26,938 nucleotides of DNA, taken from NCBI GenBank assembly GCA_003644295.1, contig QNBZ01000001.1, positions 1-26,938 on the forward strand, in the 5' to 3' direction. Under the pieces are notes generated by a model. It was not told where the DNA came from, searched no databases, and saw nothing but the letters and a program-made list of their open reading frames with translations. Position 1 is the stretch's first letter; every line of letters begins with the position of its first letter. This document shows, piece by piece, positions 1,370 to 26,938 of this stretch. Made by a program: the position numbers and the translations under genes. This stretch comes from Planctomycetota bacterium. GTDB taxonomy: Bacteria; Planctomycetota; Phycisphaerae; Sedimentisphaerales; Anaerobacaceae.

Positions 1370-4300
1370 ACAGCCGTAGCTCTTGCCTTAAACTTCAATT
1401 CATTGAGAAATTCATCGATATTCGTAACGCCTTGGATAATTATGGGACCGTGAATAACATACTCTTCTCTGTTCTCTTCTATTGGTGTTGGTAGTCTTCC
1501 ACCTACATAAGCACCATATTGGAGTTTTAAATCAGGGAAATAACGAGGAATAATTGATTTAAGTAAGCGTTCACCATATCTCCTATACCGACCACCAAGT
1601 GGTATAACAGCCTCCGGTCCAGCCTCACCAAGAAGTGCATTTACAGGTCCCTTAACTATCGCTTTACCTAGCGTTCTCGGATTAAGTGGCTTTGGAATAC
1701 TTCTTGCAGCATTCATAATAGAGGTAGCCACACCAGCTAATCCGCCAAATGCATAAGGCCAAGGTATCTGTCCAGCTTCCATAAGTTCAGCAAGTTTTTT
1801 CCTCATTAGGTCGACAGCAGCTTGTAAACTCTTCGTCGTTGCAATCACCTGCTCTTTCCCTTGTTGAGAAATAGCAACAACTCCCCAATGTCCTAGCGGA
1901 ATTCCACTCCTACCACCTGGACGCACAACATAGGTCTTGATATAATCGACGGGTGTGGCTGCACCACCGCCACCTGCACCTCCGCCTGCACCACCTCCAG
2001 CTCCTCCGCCTGCACCGCCGCCTGCACCACCAGTCATACCTTCTGTAATGGTTCTAATTATCAGCTCAAGAATCCACTTGCCCATCGGTGATTTTGTGAA
2101 ACCTGCTCTTTCAAGCATTTCTGTAACTCTATTGATGAAATTCTGTGTATCCAAGACTGTATCAATAGTGAGCTCAGGATTGTTTGTGTCGAGAATAATC
2201 TGAAGAGCGCGTAATCTTTCTGGAGTGAGATGATTAAGAAATGTATTCCAATCTTCAGAATCCCATTTTGTAATCACATCAACAGATTGGCCTGATAAAC
2301 TCGAAACAGCTTCTAAGAATTGCCTGCGTTTTTCAACTGTCATAGAATTGATGAATGCGTCCCAGTCTTGGTCATCCCAGGAAGTAGTAATACTGAGTGT
2401 AAAGTCCATATCTTGCGAACGCATATATTTCATTAATTCTTGAAAATCACCATGGAAGCCCTTGAGGAGCATATCTGCAAAGTCATATCGGAGAGCGTAT
2501 TGGAATAAAGCTTCACTGCTTTTGTAATAAAGTGATATCATCTCTTTTAGAGTATCATTCATTGTATTGAGGACATTGGTTAAAGATTCTTTCAAGTCTG
2601 CTAATTCAGTAGTGATATCATACATTGCTTCTTCTTGAGAGTATGCATCTTCGACTGCATCAACAAACGCATCAAGAGATTCGACTTGCAATGCTGTTGC
2701 TATTTGAGCAAGAGTCATGCCATCTGCATACTCTCCAGTGATTTCTGCTATCTTCACTAACGCTGCAGCCGCTATCAATTGAGCATCTGTGAATTCGCTG
2801 AGAGAGTCGTAATTCGTCTGATACAGAGTATTCAATGTCTGGAGTATTTCTTCTGCAGTGCTTCCAAAAACATTCGTAAGATTTAAGCGTGATATCAACT
2901 CATCATATATTGATGCAACATTATCAACTTCTCCTGCTTCGTCCTGAAGAGCTCTTGCCAATCTCGCTATTATACCAGCAACACCATCTATTGACTCAGC
3001 TAAATCTTCACTCACTCCGTACATTTCAAGTTCGTAAGAGATGGCTTCTCCAGTGTTATCAATTAAATCTAAGAATTCTTTAATCACTTCAGCCGAAGCA
3101 GCGCCTATTTCTTCTAGGCTTGATACTAGTGGTGTAAGAACATCTTTGAATGCACCTATAGCATCATTCAATTCCTGCTGCGCTTCTCTGTAAGCAATAA
3201 CTATAGAAAGCTCCTCATCAGTAAGGAAGGTAAGTTCATCCAAACCTTCTCCGGTGTTTATATAGTTGTCAACCAGCTGACGCTGTTCTTCATTTAGACG
3301 TTCATAAACTGCAGCCAACTTCGGATTTAATGCAAGTAATTTACCTTTTGCTCTCATCATCTGTGCATATCCGTCTATAAGGTCCTGATTTATCAAACCT
3401 TCTTCTGCAAGTTGTTTGAACAATTCATCAAGTTGCTCATCTTCTCCAGTTCTCAGTTTATAGAGCTTGTATTCAATTTCATAAAGTTTCTTCCTAGCTT
3501 CATATAGTAATTTAGCTTTTTCTGCTAGAGCTCGTTCACCCTTCTCCAATAAGAACTGATATGCCTGCTCTTTAGCTTCAAGCGATGTTATTTCAGCCTC
3601 AATCTGAATATAACGTTCACGAAGGTCTATTAAATCTTCTGCAGTCCTCAGCAAATCCTTCTGCACATCTGTCAGCATCATAATCGTCTTACCTTCCGCA
3701 GTTTCAACTTCTACGCCATGTTCCATTATATATTGCAATTGTCTACGCAATGTTGCCAATTGTTTTGTAGTTTGTGCATTTTGCTCCTCCAATTGCATAC
3801 GCTCTCGCATTGCAGCAAATAATTTATATTCAGCATTTCTAACCTCATTTGATTGAGCACCATAAATTGCAATAGCATTTGCTAAATCCTTAATTGCTTG
3901 CTCTTCTTCTCTCAATGCAGCATTTAATTCATTTTGAGCAACGAATAATTCATAAGACTGCTGAGCCATATCTTCGAGTAGTCCAACAATCTTATCGAAA
4001 GGACCTGGCAAAGCTCTCATAGCCTGTAGGAAGTTCTTAAGAGAAGTTAAGAAGTCTTTCCGTGCATCCTCAGCTTCACGCTCTGCTTGGACATATGTCT
4101 CTACAGCTTCTCTCACTCGTCTATAATCATCAGCGGCGGTACGAAGAACATCATTTAATGCACTTTGAGTATGCGCTAGCCTGTCATTAGCTTCTCTTAA
4201 TCTAGATACAGAATAACTGAGTCCAACTAACTCTCCGGCAAGCGGACCAAGAATTTTAGCAGCTTCAAAATATGTGGTCTTGAATATCTCTATGAAGGCA

Positions 4301-21262: not shown

Positions 21263-22240
21263 CTACTTCGCGAGTATTCTTACTCCAGCCTTGTCGTCCA
21301 CTACTGCAACTCCATATCTCATGGTACACGATATACCGAGCAGGTCGTGTATTGGGTCATCATATTGTTCTATTGTTATATCTCTCCTCATTGCTATGAA
21401 GGCAGCATTCTTGGAATCGAGAACCAATGCATAGTAGTGGTTGTCCGCATCTGTACCATCCCAAGAGTATGTGAATCCGCTTTCAGTTGTAACCGACAGA
21501 GTGTATGGTCTCAGGCCAAGAATTCTCGGCAGTTCTCCAGTCTCGAGGGTTCTGCCCTGACCAGCATATGCAACGTAAACCAAGTTGCTGTCTTTAAGTA
21601 GCTGACCCTCTGCAATTGGATGGGTTATCAGTGTGTCAGGCAGTCTGCCCTCAGACTCAACAAGAGCTCTTGCAGTTGCTAAATCTGTGACTGACAAAGC
21701 AGTACCAGCTGGGTCGACATCCGTGATGCCATCAAGGTCCTTGAGTATTGCCTGGAGACAATCTCTGTTCAGTTTGTTCTCTAATCTGGCACCAGCCTTC
21801 TTCAGCTCGAGCTCAACGACGTCGAAGAGGGCATCCTCAATCAGTTCGTTTGTGATGAGTGGTCTTGTACCTATCTTCTTGATTGTAATGTCAGTCTTCG
21901 CATAAGAAGTTGTATCAATCGGTATCTCAGCTCCCTCAGCTATATCTTCTGCGTATGCATTACCCTGAGATGTGACGACTCTGACGGAGTAGGAATCCGT
22001 CTTTATAACTGGAAGAACATCTCTGAAGCATTTGTATGGCTCAGCGCCTTCGACTACCGTCTTATGAACCTCTTCCTGCAGAAGAGTCGTCTCGGAGATT
22101 GAATCAGACTGCAAAAGTGTCTTATATGTCTTGGAGTCTTTACCGCCAAGGTCGTGAATCACATGCGGGTTATTCAGGAGTCTCTTCCTCTCTGAGTTGC
22201 CAGCGTATGCAAGCTGGAGCAATCTTGTCAGCTTACTCAT
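21263..22240 (-). CDS. Major capsid protein, HK97 fold, ~325 aa
   Basis: IAEGAEIP, TIKKIGTRPLITNELIEDALFDVVELEL, LENKLNRDCL, ITIEQYDDP...SCTMRYGVAVVD motifs; ATG 22240 preferred to TTG 22249. Confidence 0.93.
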   Translation of the reverse strand: MSKLTRLLQLAYAGNSERKRLLNNPHVIHDLGGKDSKTYKTLLQSDSISETTLLQEEVHKTVVEGAEPYKCFRDVLPVIKTDSYSVRVVTSQGNAYAEDIAEGAEIPIDTTSYAKTDITIKKIGTRPLITNELIEDALFDVVELELKKAGARLENKLNRDCLQAILKDLDGITDVDPAGTALSVTDLATARALVESEGRLPDTLITHPIAEGQLLKDSNLVYVAYAGQGRTLETGELPRILGLRPYTLSVTTESGFTYSWDGTDADNHYYALVLDSKNAAFIAMRRDITIEQYDDPIHDLLGISCTMRYGVAVVDDKAGVRILAK

Positions 22241-22295
22241 ATATATCAAACGTCTTTCAAAACATCTTTACATACATACATTAGATGAGAGGAAC

Positions 22296-22676
22296 TTAAA
22301 TGAGAAGCACCTTACCCACGCCAGGGTTGCTAGATGGTGCCTCCACAACGATTCCACAGTTTCTTCCGGTACTATCTCCGGAAAGATAACCTTCCTTGTA
22401 GGCACCGACTGTTGCTCCTACGGATGGTATGCTCGAACCTGATATACCGCATCTAACTATGTTCCCTGCACAGTAAATAGCAACCATCTCGCCATCAGAT
22501 GCATCGTAGTCCGCAATGCCAATTGCATCCTGATTTCCGGCAGACGTAGCTGCTACTGTATTATCGTCTACAAGCCTTACAGCCTGTCCCTTCTCAATAG
22601 AGCCGGATGCCTTGAAGGAAAATGCAAATGTTCCGAGCTGTATACCTATGTCATCATCTATTGTTATAAACGCCAT
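22296..22676 (-). CDS. Head decoration / cement protein (DUF2190-like), 126 aa
   Basis: FSFKASGSIEKGQAV...AIGIADYDASDGEMVAI pattern, directly upstream of the capsid gene. Confidence 0.75.
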   Translation of the reverse strand: MAFITIDDDIGIQLGTFAFSFKASGSIEKGQAVRLVDDNTVAATSAGNQDAIGIADYDASDGEMVAIYCAGNIVRCGISGSSIPSVGATVGAYKEGYLSGDSTGRNCGIVVEAPSSNPGVGKVLLI

Positions 22677-22730: not shown

Positions 22731-24449
22731 TTAACATCTATATATCGTGCCGTGCTTTATAACAATATCTGAGTACTCTTCTTCCTCTTCTTCATCCTCT
22801 GACTTATTGATTGTCTCCGGTGGTTTCTCTGCTTTTTCGAGAGCCTCCAATCTCTTCTGCAGTGCATTTATCTGGTCATCCTTTGCTTTAATCTCAAGTT
22901 TTAATTGCTCAATCTCCTTTGCCTTCTCGCTATCGCTTTTAAATGCTTCGTATTTCTCCCAAAGGTCATCAATAGCCTTGACAACAACTTCATGCCACTC
23001 TGCCTTGGTTGGATATGGGTACTTCGATGGGTAAGGATAGCTTGTCGGATATGGGTAAGGATACGGATAATTGCTCCTGCGAAGGTTTGCAACCATATCA
23101 AGAATAGTCTGCAGCTTTGCCTTCGTACTGTCACTCTTTACTTCATCAATTAATTTTGTAAGCGCATCAACAATAGCCCCGACTAATCCACCCTGCTTTT
23201 CGGTTGTCTCTTCACCTTCCTTATCCTCGTCTTCCTGCTTCTCTTCAACAGTCTCTTCTTCCTTTACTTCCTCTTTCGTTTCTTCTTCCTCTTCTTTGGT
23301 TTTACTGTTGACAAGCTCAGATACAATCTTTGTGAGGCTCTCCAACTTTCTCTCTATTTCTTCTTTCCAAGTCTCAATGTCCTCTGTTTCCGTTTTCTCT
23401 TCGCTGACTGTCTCTGTCTGCTCTTCGGTGTTGCACTCTTCATCTTTTACGACACCAGTCTCCAATATGTCTTCAGTCATATTCTCATTTGTCTTCTCAC
23501 ATCCACATACATCTTCTGATTTAGATATCACTATAAAGCCTGAAAGAGGATTAGCTGGAGATTCGCAAACTGAAACCTCATAGATGTTAATCTTATCAAT
23601 TACTGTATAACATTGGTTCTCGTCACACTCTCTATGCGAAAGCAATGCTTCTCCAGCTATAGAAAATGAATTCAATTTACCTTTCAGAATATCTTCCCAA
23701 ACCCTATTTGCTATCTCTAAATCGTCTCTTATTTCTGCAACTATGAAAAGACCCTTATCATCTACATGAGTCTTTAAATTGCCGTATTCTCTAAGGATTC
23801 GGCCAATTTGTATATTCTGATGCTTGACCATAACGTTGGCATAGAACTCATCATTTAAGAGGGTTTTAATTGCATCCTTAAGAACTTCAACTGGAATAAT
23901 TTCATTATCCTTATCAACTATAGCTACGGATGCATAACCTGCAATAATTCTTCGTGACTTCTTTGCTTTGCCATTCGACATGACTCTAAAGTTTCCTTGC
24001 AAATCAAAATGAATGCCATTAGACTTTGACATATGAACAATCTGTGGATTCTTGATTGGAATGAATGTTTCTTCGTATATGGGGACATAAGAAGTAAAGG
24101 GGCCTGCTGATGTATAATGAATGGAAACGTATTTAGGTACCTCATCATATGGAACTCCAAGAATGTCTGCAAACATTCTGTATATTCTGAAGTCAAAAGC
24201 CATCCTCTGCTCTGGAGACCAATCTTCTCCGCGAACAACAATGTCTATATCGTTATTGCTCTCACCATGAACTGCGAGAGAGCCAACAATATATGCAACT
24301 GGCTTTCTAACTGAGAATGGCTTCAACTTATTAAGTATATCTTTAAGCTTTATCTTTTTTCCTTTGTCGCCACGTCCTGAGGGAGGAACTGGAGCGTATT
24401 CTAACTCACCGAGTTGAGATAGCGTTTTCAACTCCTTAGTTTCAATCAT
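22731..24449 (-). CDS. Fusion: Pol-beta-superfamily nucleotidyltransferase-like domain + HK97 prohead protease + acidic coiled-coil scaffold, ~572 aa
   Basis: YIVGSLAVHGESNNDIDIVV (GS...DxD); IIAGYASVAIVDKDNEII, MVKHQ, NSFSIAG, IYEVSVCESPANP (His/Ser protease); Glu-rich helical C-terminus. ATG 24449 forms an ATGA overlap with the upstream stop. Confidence 0.88.
   Translation of the reverse strand: MIETKELKTLSQLGELEYAPVPPSGRGDKGKKIKLKDILNKLKPFSVRKPVAYIVGSLAVHGESNNDIDIVVRGEDWSPEQRMAFDFRIYRMFADILGVPYDEVPKYVSIHYTSAGPFTSYVPIYEETFIPIKNPQIVHMSKSNGIHFDLQGNFRVMSNGKAKKSRRIIAGYASVAIVDKDNEIIPVEVLKDAIKTLLNDEFYANVMVKHQNIQIGRILREYGNLKTHVDDKGLFIVAEIRDDLEIANRVWEDILKGKLNSFSIAGEALLSHRECDENQCYTVIDKINIYEVSVCESPANPLSGFIVISKSEDVCGCEKTNENMTEDILETGVVKDEECNTEEQTETVSEEKTETEDIETWKEEIERKLESLTKIVSELVNSKTKEEEEETKEEVKEEETVEEKQEDEDKEGEETTEKQGGLVGAIVDALTKLIDEVKSDSTKAKLQTILDMVANLRRSNYPYPYPYPTSYPYPSKYPYPTKAEWHEVVVKAIDDLWEKYEAFKSDSEKAKEIEQLKLEIKAKDDQINALQKRLEALEKAEKPPETINKSEDEEEEEEYSDIVIKHGTIYRC
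23010..23069 (-). repeat. Tyr-Pro repeat (YPYPYPYPTSYPYPSKYPYP) in the scaffold region
   Basis: Direct translation; eight YP dipeptides in 20 aa. Confidence 0.9.
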
Positions 24450-24739
24450 GCTCCTAAGATTATTTTCCCGACTAGTCCTAGAAGGAAGACGAACATTACT
24501 CCAAGTAGCCAATAGAGAATTGAAACCTTCATTTTAACGGCGGATATGTCGGATATAAGGTCTTTTATAACACCACTTCGCATCGAATTTACCGCAGCCC
24601 ATATCTCATCAGTCTTGCTGTCGATTTTATCCTCTAGACTTCTTATTCTTACTGATAGTTCATCTTCATTCTTATTTATCGATTCTAAGGTAGCAAGCAC
24701 TCTACCATAGAATTCACGAAAGTTTTCTTCCAGCGTCAT
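24446..24739 (-). CDS. Coiled-coil protein with a C-terminal transmembrane helix, 97 aa
   Basis: Heptad-like N-terminal 70 aa then ILYWLLGVMFVFLLGLVGKII. Confidence 0.8.
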   Translation of the reverse strand: MTLEENFREFYGRVLATLESINKNEDELSVRIRSLEDKIDSKTDEIWAAVNSMRSGVIKDLISDISAVKMKVSILYWLLGVMFVFLLGLVGKIILGA

Positions 24740-24744
24740 AATCC

Positions 24745-24819
24745 TTATTTCGTAAGCTCTTTAAGAATTTTAAAATACAGAATTTTAAGTTCTTCTATTG
24801 CTTTCCCGACTCCATTCAT
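24745..24819 (-). CDS. 24-aa micro-ORF MNGVGKAIEELKILYFKILKELTK
   Basis: Not in the ORF track. ATG overlaps the upstream TGA (ATGA) and its TAA lies 5 nt before the next ATG, exactly filling the gap. Confidence 0.55.
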   Translation of the reverse strand: MNGVGKAIEELKILYFKILKELTK

Positions 24820-25820
24820 GGTTTACATGACAGCTTTTCAGAAAACTTCTCTACAGACATTTCTCTATATGCTTCTCTTCCGAATTTATCGAGCTCTTCA
24901 GCTTTTATTGGATAGTAATGGCCACAATCGGCATGGAGTATTGAATCCATTGGATAAGGGTCATCGTATGCCTTCCAAACCCACCAGCGTTTATCTTTCC
25001 CAGCTCTAAAGCATCTAATTATGAAACGGCCATTAAAGAGTTCTTGATTACGCTTAGGCATGTCCGTGCTTGGATAGAGGAAATATTCATGCAAATCAGG
25101 TCTCTGAACTCCTGCTTTCACCTTACCAAGCCAAATCGCACACATATATGCATTTTTGTATGCGGTGGCACCTACGTCTCCAGCTTCAATGATATACGAT
25201 TTATCAAAGAGGACATATTTCTCTATTAGTTTTGCATCCTCGGGACCAATAATCAAGTCTTCCTTTGCTTTAACCGCCTGAGTAGGTTCCAACGCCGATG
25301 GCTTGACAATTGCAAGTCCTTTTGATGCATTACCTGTCTTTGGGTCCCTCCGACCTATAATTGTATCGAAGTAATCCGGAATATGGTCTTGAGTGATTAC
25401 CCATTGAACGAAGGAATTCTTGAACTTCATTCTCAAATCCACATGAATCGAGTGACCTTGAATTAATTTTGCAAAGGACAACTTACCCTCAAGATATTTC
25501 TTAGTATCGTCTAAATTAAGTCCGCGAATATGCATCTGTGCCCAAGCAATGCCTTCGTCGTAGTCAACATAGCATATCTTTGGAAGCGGCTCCAATTCCT
25601 TCTTCAATTTTTCATAGATATCTTCTGGAATATGCTTGAGAGATAGCCATTCGCAAACATCTTCTTTTGTAATAGCTTTATCCTTGAGTATTTTACGCCA
25701 AGTGTCTGGCACCGCATCTGAATAATAGAGTTTGGTGTACTCGGCCAATGAGAGATTCTCAAGTGAAGATGAGTCTACAAATTGAAGAGAGCCATCTGGA
25801 TATTCAACTAAGACGCGCAT
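24816..25820 (-). CDS. LigD-type 3'-phosphoesterase (PE)-like protein with N-terminal extension, ~334 aa
   Basis: AQMH...HSIHVDLRMKF...QW matches the PE QxH...HxDxR..W metal/phosphate motif; C-terminal VGAT...IWLG...FNGRFIIR...RWWVWK parallels LigD YGAG.V.IWD.G...L.G.W.L...WLLIK. Confidence 0.75.
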   Translation of the reverse strand: MRVLVEYPDGSLQFVDSSSLENLSLAEYTKLYYSDAVPDTWRKILKDKAITKEDVCEWLSLKHIPEDIYEKLKKELEPLPKICYVDYDEGIAWAQMHIRGLNLDDTKKYLEGKLSFAKLIQGHSIHVDLRMKFKNSFVQWVITQDHIPDYFDTIIGRRDPKTGNASKGLAIVKPSALEPTQAVKAKEDLIIGPEDAKLIEKYVLFDKSYIIEAGDVGATAYKNAYMCAIWLGKVKAGVQRPDLHEYFLYPSTDMPKRNQELFNGRFIIRCFRAGKDKRWWVWKAYDDPYPMDSILHADCGHYYPIKAEELDKFGREAYREMSVEKFSEKLSCKP

Positions 25821-26937
25821 CGCCAATCTTAATTATTCTAACATAGGTGTCACCAATTTTGGCAATGTCTTGTTGAATATGTTGCAGCTCTTCAATTGGT
25901 ATTCGTTGCGGCTCAAATGATGATAATTTATCAATAGTTTCCAATGAATCCGTAACATCTTTCTCAGGGATTGGTTCCAACACTCTTCCTATGTAAAAGG
26001 AATACCGTGGATATTCTGGAAATTTCTCGTTATCAAACTTCAGCACTTCTTCGGCCGCTATCCTTATAATATCGCCGATTTTGATTTGTGTTCTCTCTTT
26101 ATGATTATCTGATTTGCCCATCAATGTTACAAATATCACTGAATTATCATTCAGATACTTCTTGCAGTCTTTGCCAACAGCTACAATTTTACCATTCTTG
26201 TAGCAATGAACTTTACCATACCAATCTTTTGTTGTCATATTTAGATACGCTTCAGCATAATCGCGCGGTGTATCATATCCAAGGTAGTAGTTATAAACGT
26301 CCTTAGTGCCTTTCACTAGCTTCTTATCGAGGACTCGCAAGTCAAGCTCATGATAGAACTTCACCTTCATCCAATAATGATTCTGAGGAGACTCGTATGG
26401 ACCATCCAGACGTTTCAGCATTACACCCTCTGCACAGAACTTTGGTCTACCATTCTTAGCATCACGAATAATCTCTGCAGCCTTTAGGATGCAATCGATA
26501 TTAGAACCATCACAAATATATCCATCAGCTTTCTTTTCGAAGGTAGTAGCAATTCTTTCTATCCAAATGTGCTCTGTTGGTTTCAATCGAGAGAGATATT
26601 CTAGACGTTCATGAAGAGGAAGATTGCGTAAATCTTCTCCTTCAAAGTAAATTATATCGAATACGACAATTATTGCATAACGTTCCAGCTCTTCTCCAGA
26701 TGCTTTTGAGTTTAAGAGTGAATTCGCCACCGTCCTATGAAGCATTTCTTTACCATTAGGATGAATAGCTAGAAATTCTCCATCAAGAATGGTATTGTCG
26801 GGAAAGTTGTCTTCGATTTCCTTTATTATAGCCGGTATTCTTTTCGACACATTCGGGTCCTTCTCTTTCACGTCTTCTGGGTCAACAAATGCAAATCCCT
26901 TTCCGTTGACTTTACCAATCGTCATTCTGAGTCCGTC
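25804..26937 (-). CDS. ATP-dependent DNA ligase (adenylation + OB domains), 5'-truncated by the window edge
   Basis: Frame is open past the ORF-track start: 26937-26926 reads D-G-L-R (end of motif I KxDGxR); ILDGEF (III), VVFDII (IIIa), EGVMLK (IV), WMKVK (V), then an OB-like domain with a degenerate motif VI (IPEK for RxDK). Confidence 0.9.
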   Translation of the reverse strand, partial: DGLRMTIGKVNGKGFAFVDPEDVKEKDPNVSKRIPAIIKEIEDNFPDNTILDGEFLAIHPNGKEMLHRTVANSLLNSKASGEELERYAIIVVFDIIYFEGEDLRNLPLHERLEYLSRLKPTEHIWIERIATTFEKKADGYICDGSNIDCILKAAEIIRDAKNGRPKFCAEGVMLKRLDGPYESPQNHYWMKVKFYHELDLRVLDKKLVKGTKDVYNYYLGYDTPRDYAEAYLNMTTKDWYGKVHCYKNGKIVAVGKDCKKYLNDNSVIFVTLMGKSDNHKERTQIKIGDIIRIAAEEVLKFDNEKFPEYPRYSFYIGRVLEPIPEKDVTDSLETIDKLSSFEPQRIPIEELQHIQQDIAKIGDTYVRIIKIGDARLS

Positions 26938-26938
26938 C

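Follow-up and report, generated by a model that had tools for sequence, protein, structure and literature searches.

A predicted set of DNA end-healing and end-sealing domains in the head module of what is probably an archaeal tailed virus

Why should a virus place what look like enzymes for mending the ends of nucleic acids among the genes that build its head? The question is raised by the right end of contig QNBZ01000001.1 (C1 in this work), which we analysed in its entirety—26,938 nucleotides (nt), or 26.9 kb, with every gene on the minus strand—and refer to here as the window. Transcription of this end passes from a fragment of a ligase gene, through a gene for a 334-amino acid (aa) phosphoesterase (PE)-like protein and another for a 97-aa protein (p97), to a protease-scaffold gene, a cement gene and the gene for an HK97-fold capsid protein. 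The original prediction, made from the sequence of the window, was that ligase, PE and nucleotidyltransferase domains lie upstream of the decoration and capsid genes, and Pfam matches, fold comparisons and conserved motifs bear this out. It held, too, that the nucleotidyltransferase is fused to the prohead protease, and so it is: a single protein of 572 aa combines a nucleotidyltransferase-like (NT-like) N-terminus with an S78 protease domain. The further claim, that the genes sit directly upstream and are chained by overlaps, stands in part. The ligase and PE genes overlap by 17 nt, and those of p97 and the protease by 4 (ATGA, in which the p97 stop meets the protease start), but the PE gene is followed by a gap of 76 nt, and the p97 gene intervenes before the protease. 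Our answer to the question, to which we give a probability of roughly one half, is that these genes are a split version of a head-module polyvalent protein: a LigD-like heal-and-seal core that would operate independently of Ku, be loaded into the capsid, and act on viral DNA.

Sequence profiles miss what the 334-aa protein is related to. It has no match in Pfam or PHROG, Pfam is blank for all 18 of its homologues as well, and searches of the family against the Protein Data Bank (PDB) with phmmer and hmmsearch returned no match. Its membership of the PE family is for this reason argued from fold and motif. An AlphaFold model, made with the 18 homologues as input, has a predicted local distance difference test score (pLDDT) of 88.9. 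In an exhaustive structure comparison it matched the archaeal PE 3p4h_A with a Z score of 9.4 (112/118 residues aligned) and the PE of Pseudomonas LigD, 3n9b_A, with 7.7; the next match scored 3.4. Foldseek, run against the PDB, gave as its top and only convincing match another archaeal PE structure, 3p43, at probability 1.0. Against the clusters of the AlphaFold Database (AFDB), the model matched proteins named ligase, XkdF protease, metallo-beta-lactamase (MBL) and adenine methyltransferase, and then a LigD PE-domain protein. As modelled, then, the protein is a divergent LigD-type 3'-phosphoesterase fold, and the point on which the original prediction had staked itself beforehand has gone in its favour.

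The protein is 334 aa long when read from its ATG and 336 aa from a TTG at 25826; the residue numbers given here follow the longer reading. Its barrel core occupies residues ~91–286, preceded by some 90 residues, mostly helical, and followed by a C-terminal tail. Q97-x-H99 lies on the first strand of the barrel (91–103) and H128-x-D130-x-R132 on the second (126–135), with a helix of ~22 residues inserted between the two. From work on the Pseudomonas LigD PE, we take these Gln-x-His and His-x-Asp-x-Arg motifs to be the metal and phosphate site. Q97, H99, H128, D130, R132, K175, R242, D244, H246 and E247 are each conserved at 90% or more in 25 diverse homologues.

The ligase is present in the window as the C-terminal part of a larger protein, its gene truncated at the 5' end because the contig stops there. 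The lysine of motif I (KWDG) falls two codons past the contig end and can be seen on a near-identical 88.9-kb metagenomic contig (L002), which encodes the same protease protein and supplies the complete locus. The window fragment holds ligase motifs III, IIIa, IV and V together with the OB domain, and scores 63.2 bits against PF01068; the full-length protein from L002 (P0036, 906 aa) scores 70.6 bits (E 1.9e-19), the cut-off being 26.2. Across 25 homologues, motif I (KWDGLR) and motifs III, IIIa, IV and V (LDGEF, FDxxxxxG, EGVMLK, WMKVK) are all conserved. The OB domain has motif VI only in a variant form, YPRY..Y...vL.PvPEK..D, which is conserved as well. With motifs I, III, IIIa, IV and V all in place, the predicted ligase looks functional. 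A programmed frameshift from the ligase gene into the PE gene was also considered; the PE gene occupies the +1 frame, and no obvious slippery site was seen.

Two further domains on the ligase protein, an MBL-like domain at the N-terminus (PF12706, 29.3 bits, E 7.9e-7) and an ASCH domain (structural TM score 0.75; Atlas), are part of the same module and were missed by the original prediction. A canonical MBL active site is unsupported: HxHxDH is reduced to xxDxDH, and the histidines of motifs 3 and 5 are gone. Ahead of the ligase domain, at residues 345–500 of the 906-aa protein, lies a helical domain of no recognized fold that elsewhere directly precedes an XkdF protease (L016:14132-15238 and similar); it may be a linker, a targeting module or a processing module.

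Inteins single out parts of both proteins. In relatives, they interrupt the PE at three conserved sites: inside the HxDxR motif (between SIH and CDLR, as at L029:3926-4933), after GEVG (between GEVG and S), and near residue ~300. Those at the first two sites contain LAGLIDADG endonucleases; further PE inteins are found at L032:10247-11254 and in L033 and L034. A virus 99% identical to that of the window has an intein of ~350 aa, again with a LAGLIDADG endonuclease, in its ligase between LHRT and C (L005:7364-8446). The window ligase has none there, so the presence of this intein differs between near-identical viruses. Inteins typically home to essential, conserved sites, and their positions would mark the ligase LHRT motif, and the HxDxR and GxVG motifs of the PE, as conserved and needed. 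In a distant relative, a gene for an HNH endonuclease (L004:7334-8038) breaks the ligase-PE gene, inside the ligase, into two open reading frames (ORFs).

The third member of the set is the N-terminal ~145 aa of the protease protein. This region carries an invariant GSx9DxD (here VGS-x9-DIDIV), within the hG[GS]x9-13Dh[DE]h signature of the Pol-beta superfamily, and is predicted to fold like the MNT antitoxins. Its model has a pLDDT of 61.8 overall and about 75–88 over residues 30–120, and its best structure matches are MNT antitoxins and minimal nucleotidyltransferases (Z 5.6–6.0; Foldseek 8xeh_E, E 4.4e-3). When 1.84 billion representative proteins were searched with a profile, 343 proved to carry the domain. 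All 40 diverse members compared have G56, D67, D69, R88, R91 and T119, and among them sub-threshold Pfam matches occur to NTP_transf_2 in nine and to Polbeta in five (best E 0.0016). Compared with the PDB by hidden Markov model (HMM), the profile reached E 0.16, and weakly touched the minimal Pol X of African swine fever virus (ASFV; E 0.67). We accept this N-terminus as a minimal Pol-beta-fold nucleotidyltransferase-like domain.

Do the three domains belong together? We surveyed 34 related loci in IMG/VR, 30 of them with upstream sequence, and took a domain census of 145 representative NT-like proteins. Ligase accompanies PE in 29 of the 30 loci, and in 18 both are encoded by one ORF; in one virus (L007) they form part of a single MBL-ASCH-ligase-PE protein of 1177 aa. 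A search of GenBank phage records for the PE gave one match, the archaeal virus ANMV-1 (L051, KP703175.1). Its 866-aa protein AJP62006.1 (3200-5800), annotated 'ATP-dependent DNA ligase', starts with an NT-like domain (residues 14–141, E 3e-43), continues with a ligase and then a PE-like domain, and directly follows the portal—a gene (1913-3193) annotated 'MutT-like phage hydrolase' that matches Phage_portal_3 (E 3e-22). Partners of the NT-like domain in the census include ligase (59/145), PE (25/145), the S78_2 (XkdF-type) protease (39/145), the S78 protease (21/145) and the D12 (Dam-like) methylase (21/145). In 42 of the 145, the NT-like domain directly precedes the ligase, mostly with a linker of 23–90 aa. 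One protein of 1529 aa (P0068) reads methylase, NT-like, PAPS reductase, ligase, protease; another architecture combines methylase, NT-like, Tad3 (anti-Thoeris) and protease. The AFDB clusters agree with the census on these fusions. The expectation that the three domains would co-occur in related viruses has thus been borne out, with repeated fusion besides, as ANMV-1, L007 and P0068 illustrate. Relatives of this kind string several unrelated effector domains together in a single polypeptide whose gene lies among those for the virion, and an assemblin-like protease, when present, is C-terminal; these are the marks of a polyvalent protein. One locus has ligase and PE in the same polypeptide with an inserted D12-class adenine methyltransferase domain separating them (L019:3858-4643).

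The link with the head, likewise foreseen, extends well beyond the window. Even in distant viruses the ligase-PE gene lies between portal/MuF and the prohead protease, as in L016, where the order is portal, MuF, MBL-ligase-PE, methylase, helical-domain-XkdF protease. In such viruses the protease gene itself begins with a methylase, an NT-like domain or that same helical domain, and many relatives fuse these domains to S78 or XkdF prohead proteases. Our first suspicion was that the ligase-PE module has no tie to the head or to the NT-like domain, since distant loci lacked matches to an NT-protease of the window type. We rejected it on account of the portal, MuF and XkdF proteases that Pfam identifies around distant ligase-PE loci, and of the domain census.

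Reading activity, substrate, packaging, timing and biological role from these folds, motifs, fusions and gene positions, we picture the set working as follows. The PE domain, with its His-His-Asp metal site and its arginine, would remove 3'-phosphate or 3'-ribonucleotide blocks, and the ATP-dependent ligase would seal the 3'-OH/5'-P nick that results. The NT-like domain would contribute nucleotidyl transfer, in the simplest case by extending the 3' end with a few nucleotides; the MBL-like and ASCH domains probably assist in trimming or recognizing ends. DNA is favored as the substrate by the type of ligase and by the methylase partners. Because the NT-like domain is part of the protease-scaffold protein, and because relatives fuse ligase and PE to the protease, the enzymes probably enter the procapsid, are freed by the protease and then work on viral DNA. 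Their most likely action would be to seal or join genome ends and nicks at, or just after, delivery to the host, alongside Dam-like methylases in the fused versions.

A bolder extension, which we hold only tentatively, is that tailed viruses—archaeal here, bacterial phages elsewhere—carry a Ku-independent end-joining kit within the capsid and inject it, to seal, join or circularize the genome before host nucleases can act. Such a kit would comprise a ligase, possibly already adenylated, a 3'-end cleaner of the LigD type and a minimal Pol-beta nucleotidyltransferase, anchored by the protease and released by it.

Several points weigh against the account of a capsid-borne, LigD-like core. In the virus of the window, neither the ligase nor the PE is fused to the protease, and fusion within polyvalent proteins, whose domains are shuffled, speaks less strongly for a shared pathway than it would in ordinary enzymes. 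No sequence profile, whether in Pfam or in HMM searches of the PDB, ties the PE-like protein to PF13298; comparison by hhalign with six PF13298 proteins, all from related genomes, returned E 0.035–0.055 at ~1% probability, and it is this same low-probability alignment that pairs HVDLR of the PE-like protein with HWDFR of theirs. A counterpart of the catalytic His84 of the Pseudomonas LigD PE was not located: the strand equivalent in sequence to that of His84 and Tyr88 (LAIVKPS) has no histidine, and the conserved R242/D244/H246/E247 cluster sits on another strand. The MBL-like domain lacks most of the canonical metal-binding histidines. The NT-like model is only moderate, its fold scores (Z ~6) barely exceed those of unrelated alpha/beta folds, and the column of the third carboxylate (E126 here) is acidic in only 27 of the 40 members. 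The nearest solved relatives of this domain, moreover, AMPylate proteins, not DNA. The idea of a LigD-like triad, with a Pol-beta-type domain in place of POL, is upheld in part, by the folds and by co-occurrence, and qualified by these protein-AMPylating MNT antitoxins as the closest, if weakly scoring, solved folds.

Of the alternatives, repair late in infection survives best, although we consider it unlikely. On this account the set would act in the cytoplasm on replicated concatemers, mending nicks, gaps and blocked ends before terminase packages the DNA, and fusion to the protease would serve as a tether or for co-regulation. The genes do lie in the packaging and head operon, between terminase-portal and capsid, and in the window virus ligase and PE are two proteins, neither of which includes a protease or scaffold portion. 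In phage T4, nicks or branches in the DNA impede its packaging, for which both ligase and endonuclease VII matter. Repeated fusion of ligase and PE to prohead proteases, however, puts these domains inside the procapsid, where the protease acts, and the co-fused Dam-like methylases and Tad3 anti-Thoeris domain fit early counter-defence better. Loading into the capsid, with action on the incoming genome, remains the reading that we prefer.

Next in order, and improbable in our estimation, is that the NT-like domain is no polymerase-like partner at all: it would modify a protein, by AMPylation of a host or viral target, or be a non-catalytic domain for head assembly, leaving ligase and PE alone as the repair unit. 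Iyer et al. predict protein substrates for the Pol-beta nucleotidyltransferases of polyvalent proteins (PMC5512222). The best structure matches, as mentioned, are MNT antitoxins and minimal nucleotidyltransferases; there are no fingers or thumb to hold a primer-template; and in the window the domain travels with the protease, not the ligase. Set against this is its place directly N-terminal to the ligase, on short linkers, in 42 of the 145 representatives, and in ANMV-1 too. Its profile also touches, however weakly, the minimal ASFV Pol X. The invariance of two aspartates, two arginines and a threonine argues for a catalytic domain.

Least probable by far is an RNA repair set resembling T4 Pnkp/Rnl1, restoring tRNAs or other RNAs cut by the ribonucleases of host defence. 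In its favor, RNA repair is a familiar capacity of phages, the ends on which PE enzymes work are 3'-phosphates and ribonucleotides, and some related architectures contain ASCH and 2H/LigT domains. Against it, the ligase is of the DNA_ligase_A_M type with an OB domain, the domains repeatedly found fused to it are DNA adenine methylases and one resembling PAPS reductase, and no 5'-kinase was seen.

The coordinates of the genes and domains considered here are collected in Table 1.

Table 1. Genes and domains at the right end of the window, in order of transcription
Feature	Position	Strand	Evidence
C-terminal 377 codons of the 906-aa MBL-like/ASCH/helical/ATP-dependent DNA ligase protein	25804-26938	-	PF01068, E 3.5e-17
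Divergent LigD-type 3'-phosphoesterase (PE) fold protein (predicted), 334 aa	24816-25820	-	AlphaFold model and structure comparison
97-aa coiled-coil protein (p97), C-terminal hydrophobic/transmembrane helix	24446-24739	-	Translation
NT-like/protease/scaffold protein, 572 aa	22731-24449	-	Pfam, PHROG, alignments
NT-like domain, residues 1-145 of the 572-aa protein	24015-24449	-	Alignments, fold matches
HK97-type prohead serine protease domain (Peptidase_S78)	23532-23981	-	PF04586, E 1.9e-12 (residues 178-327 in the 593-aa TTG reading); PHROG head maturation protease families
C-terminal region of the protease protein, acidic coiled-coil and scaffold-like	22731-23531	-	Translation; PHROG protease-scaffold families reach into this region
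Cement/decoration protein	22296-22676	-	Pfam (PF09956 and PF05065, given jointly for the cement and capsid genes)
HK97-fold major capsid protein	21263-22249	-	Pfam (PF09956 and PF05065, given jointly for the cement and capsid genes)

On the near-identical contig that completes the locus, the order is terminase, Alba, portal, a weakly S78-like 175-aa protein, a 102-aa protein, the 906-aa ligase protein, the 334-aa protein, the 97-aa protein, protease-scaffold, cement and capsid. Close relatives keep the p97 gene in this position, after PE and before the protease; homologues occur in L005-L011, L018 and L032. The 175-aa protein encoded after the portal (L002:5110-5637) matches Peptidase_S78 weakly (E 6e-4) and is kept in relatives, and its gene is a second protease-like gene of the locus. 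Between terminase and portal lies a gene for the chromatin protein Alba (L002:3647-3892; PF01918, E 6.5e-14), which is kept in close relatives.

Whose virus is it? The contig was binned with a planctomycete, and we rejected this assignment of the host. Of all contigs in the bin, C1 deviates most in tetranucleotide composition (r 0.53, against a median of 0.94), with a guanine-plus-cytosine content of 40.5% versus 45.8%, and the 16S rRNA of the metagenome-assembled genome (MAG; contig C161) is bacterial, whereas the virus has genes of archaeal type. C1 is probably mis-binned. Pointers to an archaeal host are the viral Alba gene, PCNA in a related virus, kinship with ANMV-1, and the presence of relatives in the bins of archaeal MAGs from Guaymas; the virus is probably archaeal, and tailed.

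If the set is active and capsid-borne, enzymes that repair and join DNA would become a new class of cargo in virions, as against polymerases, methylases and inhibitors, and the set would be a form of virion-borne DNA repair distinct both from cellular non-homologous end joining (NHEJ) and from the packaged anti-restriction proteins already known. It would show how viruses can protect or circularize an incoming genome in hosts without NHEJ. The LigD PE superfamily would gain a large viral branch, invisible to sequence comparison, and a hitherto unnamed nucleotidyltransferase-like domain found in hundreds of protein clusters would be defined. The family is also a possible source of compact ligases and end-polishing enzymes. 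Two annotations call for correction: the ANMV-1 'ligase' is predicted to be a fusion of three enzymes, and the ANMV-1 'MutT-like hydrolase' is the portal. The literature that we searched yielded no description of a head module with ligase, PE and nucleotidyltransferase.

How does the set compare with systems that are known? Bacterial LigD (POL-PE-LIG), which partners Ku, likewise unites an ATP-dependent ligase, a PE-fold domain and a nucleotidyl-transfer domain, and in relatives of the viral set these form one chain, as in LigD. The viral set differs from LigD in having a minimal Pol-beta-fold domain in place of the archaeo-eukaryotic primase (AEP)-type primase-polymerase—no family of the AEP or primase type was returned by Pfam scans of the set proteins—and in being encoded in a head module, with MBL-like and ASCH partners. 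Ku (PF02735) is absent from the window, as had been claimed, and from five related virus records, two of which have terminal repeats. With the PE of LigD, and with stand-alone archaeal PE enzymes (3N9B, 3P43, 3P4H), the viral protein shares the beta-barrel and the QxH...HxDxR motifs. In contrast to these it is about three times larger, has the helix of ~22 residues inserted between the two motif strands as well as additional sequence at either end, and goes undetected by PF13298. The NT-like domain resembles the MNT antitoxins of HEPN-MNT systems (8XEH, 7AE2, 1NO5) and ASFV Pol X in its small Pol-beta fold and hG[GS]...DxD signature; unlike the antitoxins, it has no HEPN partner, displays an N-terminal YAPxxPSG element and FRxxR and GPFT motifs of its own, and scores weakly against solved structures.

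ANMV-1 has the same NT-like, ligase and PE-like domains in the same place, after the portal. It differs in that all three are in one protein, in that its PE motif reads HGDLM, the arginine having been replaced, and in that the record annotates the ligase alone. Among anti-restriction enzymes packaged in phage heads, DarB of phage P1 is the tested example. Phage polyvalent proteins with assemblin-like C-terminal proteases, for which packaging in the head is predicted, were described by Iyer, Burroughs, Anand, de Souza and Aravind in 2017 (PMC5512222), in a text with no occurrence of 'DNA ligase', in which a LigD-type PE is undescribed and Pol-beta nucleotidyltransferases appear only in proteins of conjugative elements. 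The set in the window departs from these proteins in being split over three genes, with only the NT-like domain fused to the protease and a scaffold region after the protease, and in belonging, probably, to an archaeal virus. It resembles them in its enzymatic domains, strung together or placed side by side near genes for portal, MuF and protease, and, in the fused relatives, in the C-terminal protease; adenine methylase partners, and predicted packaging and co-injection, complete the likeness.

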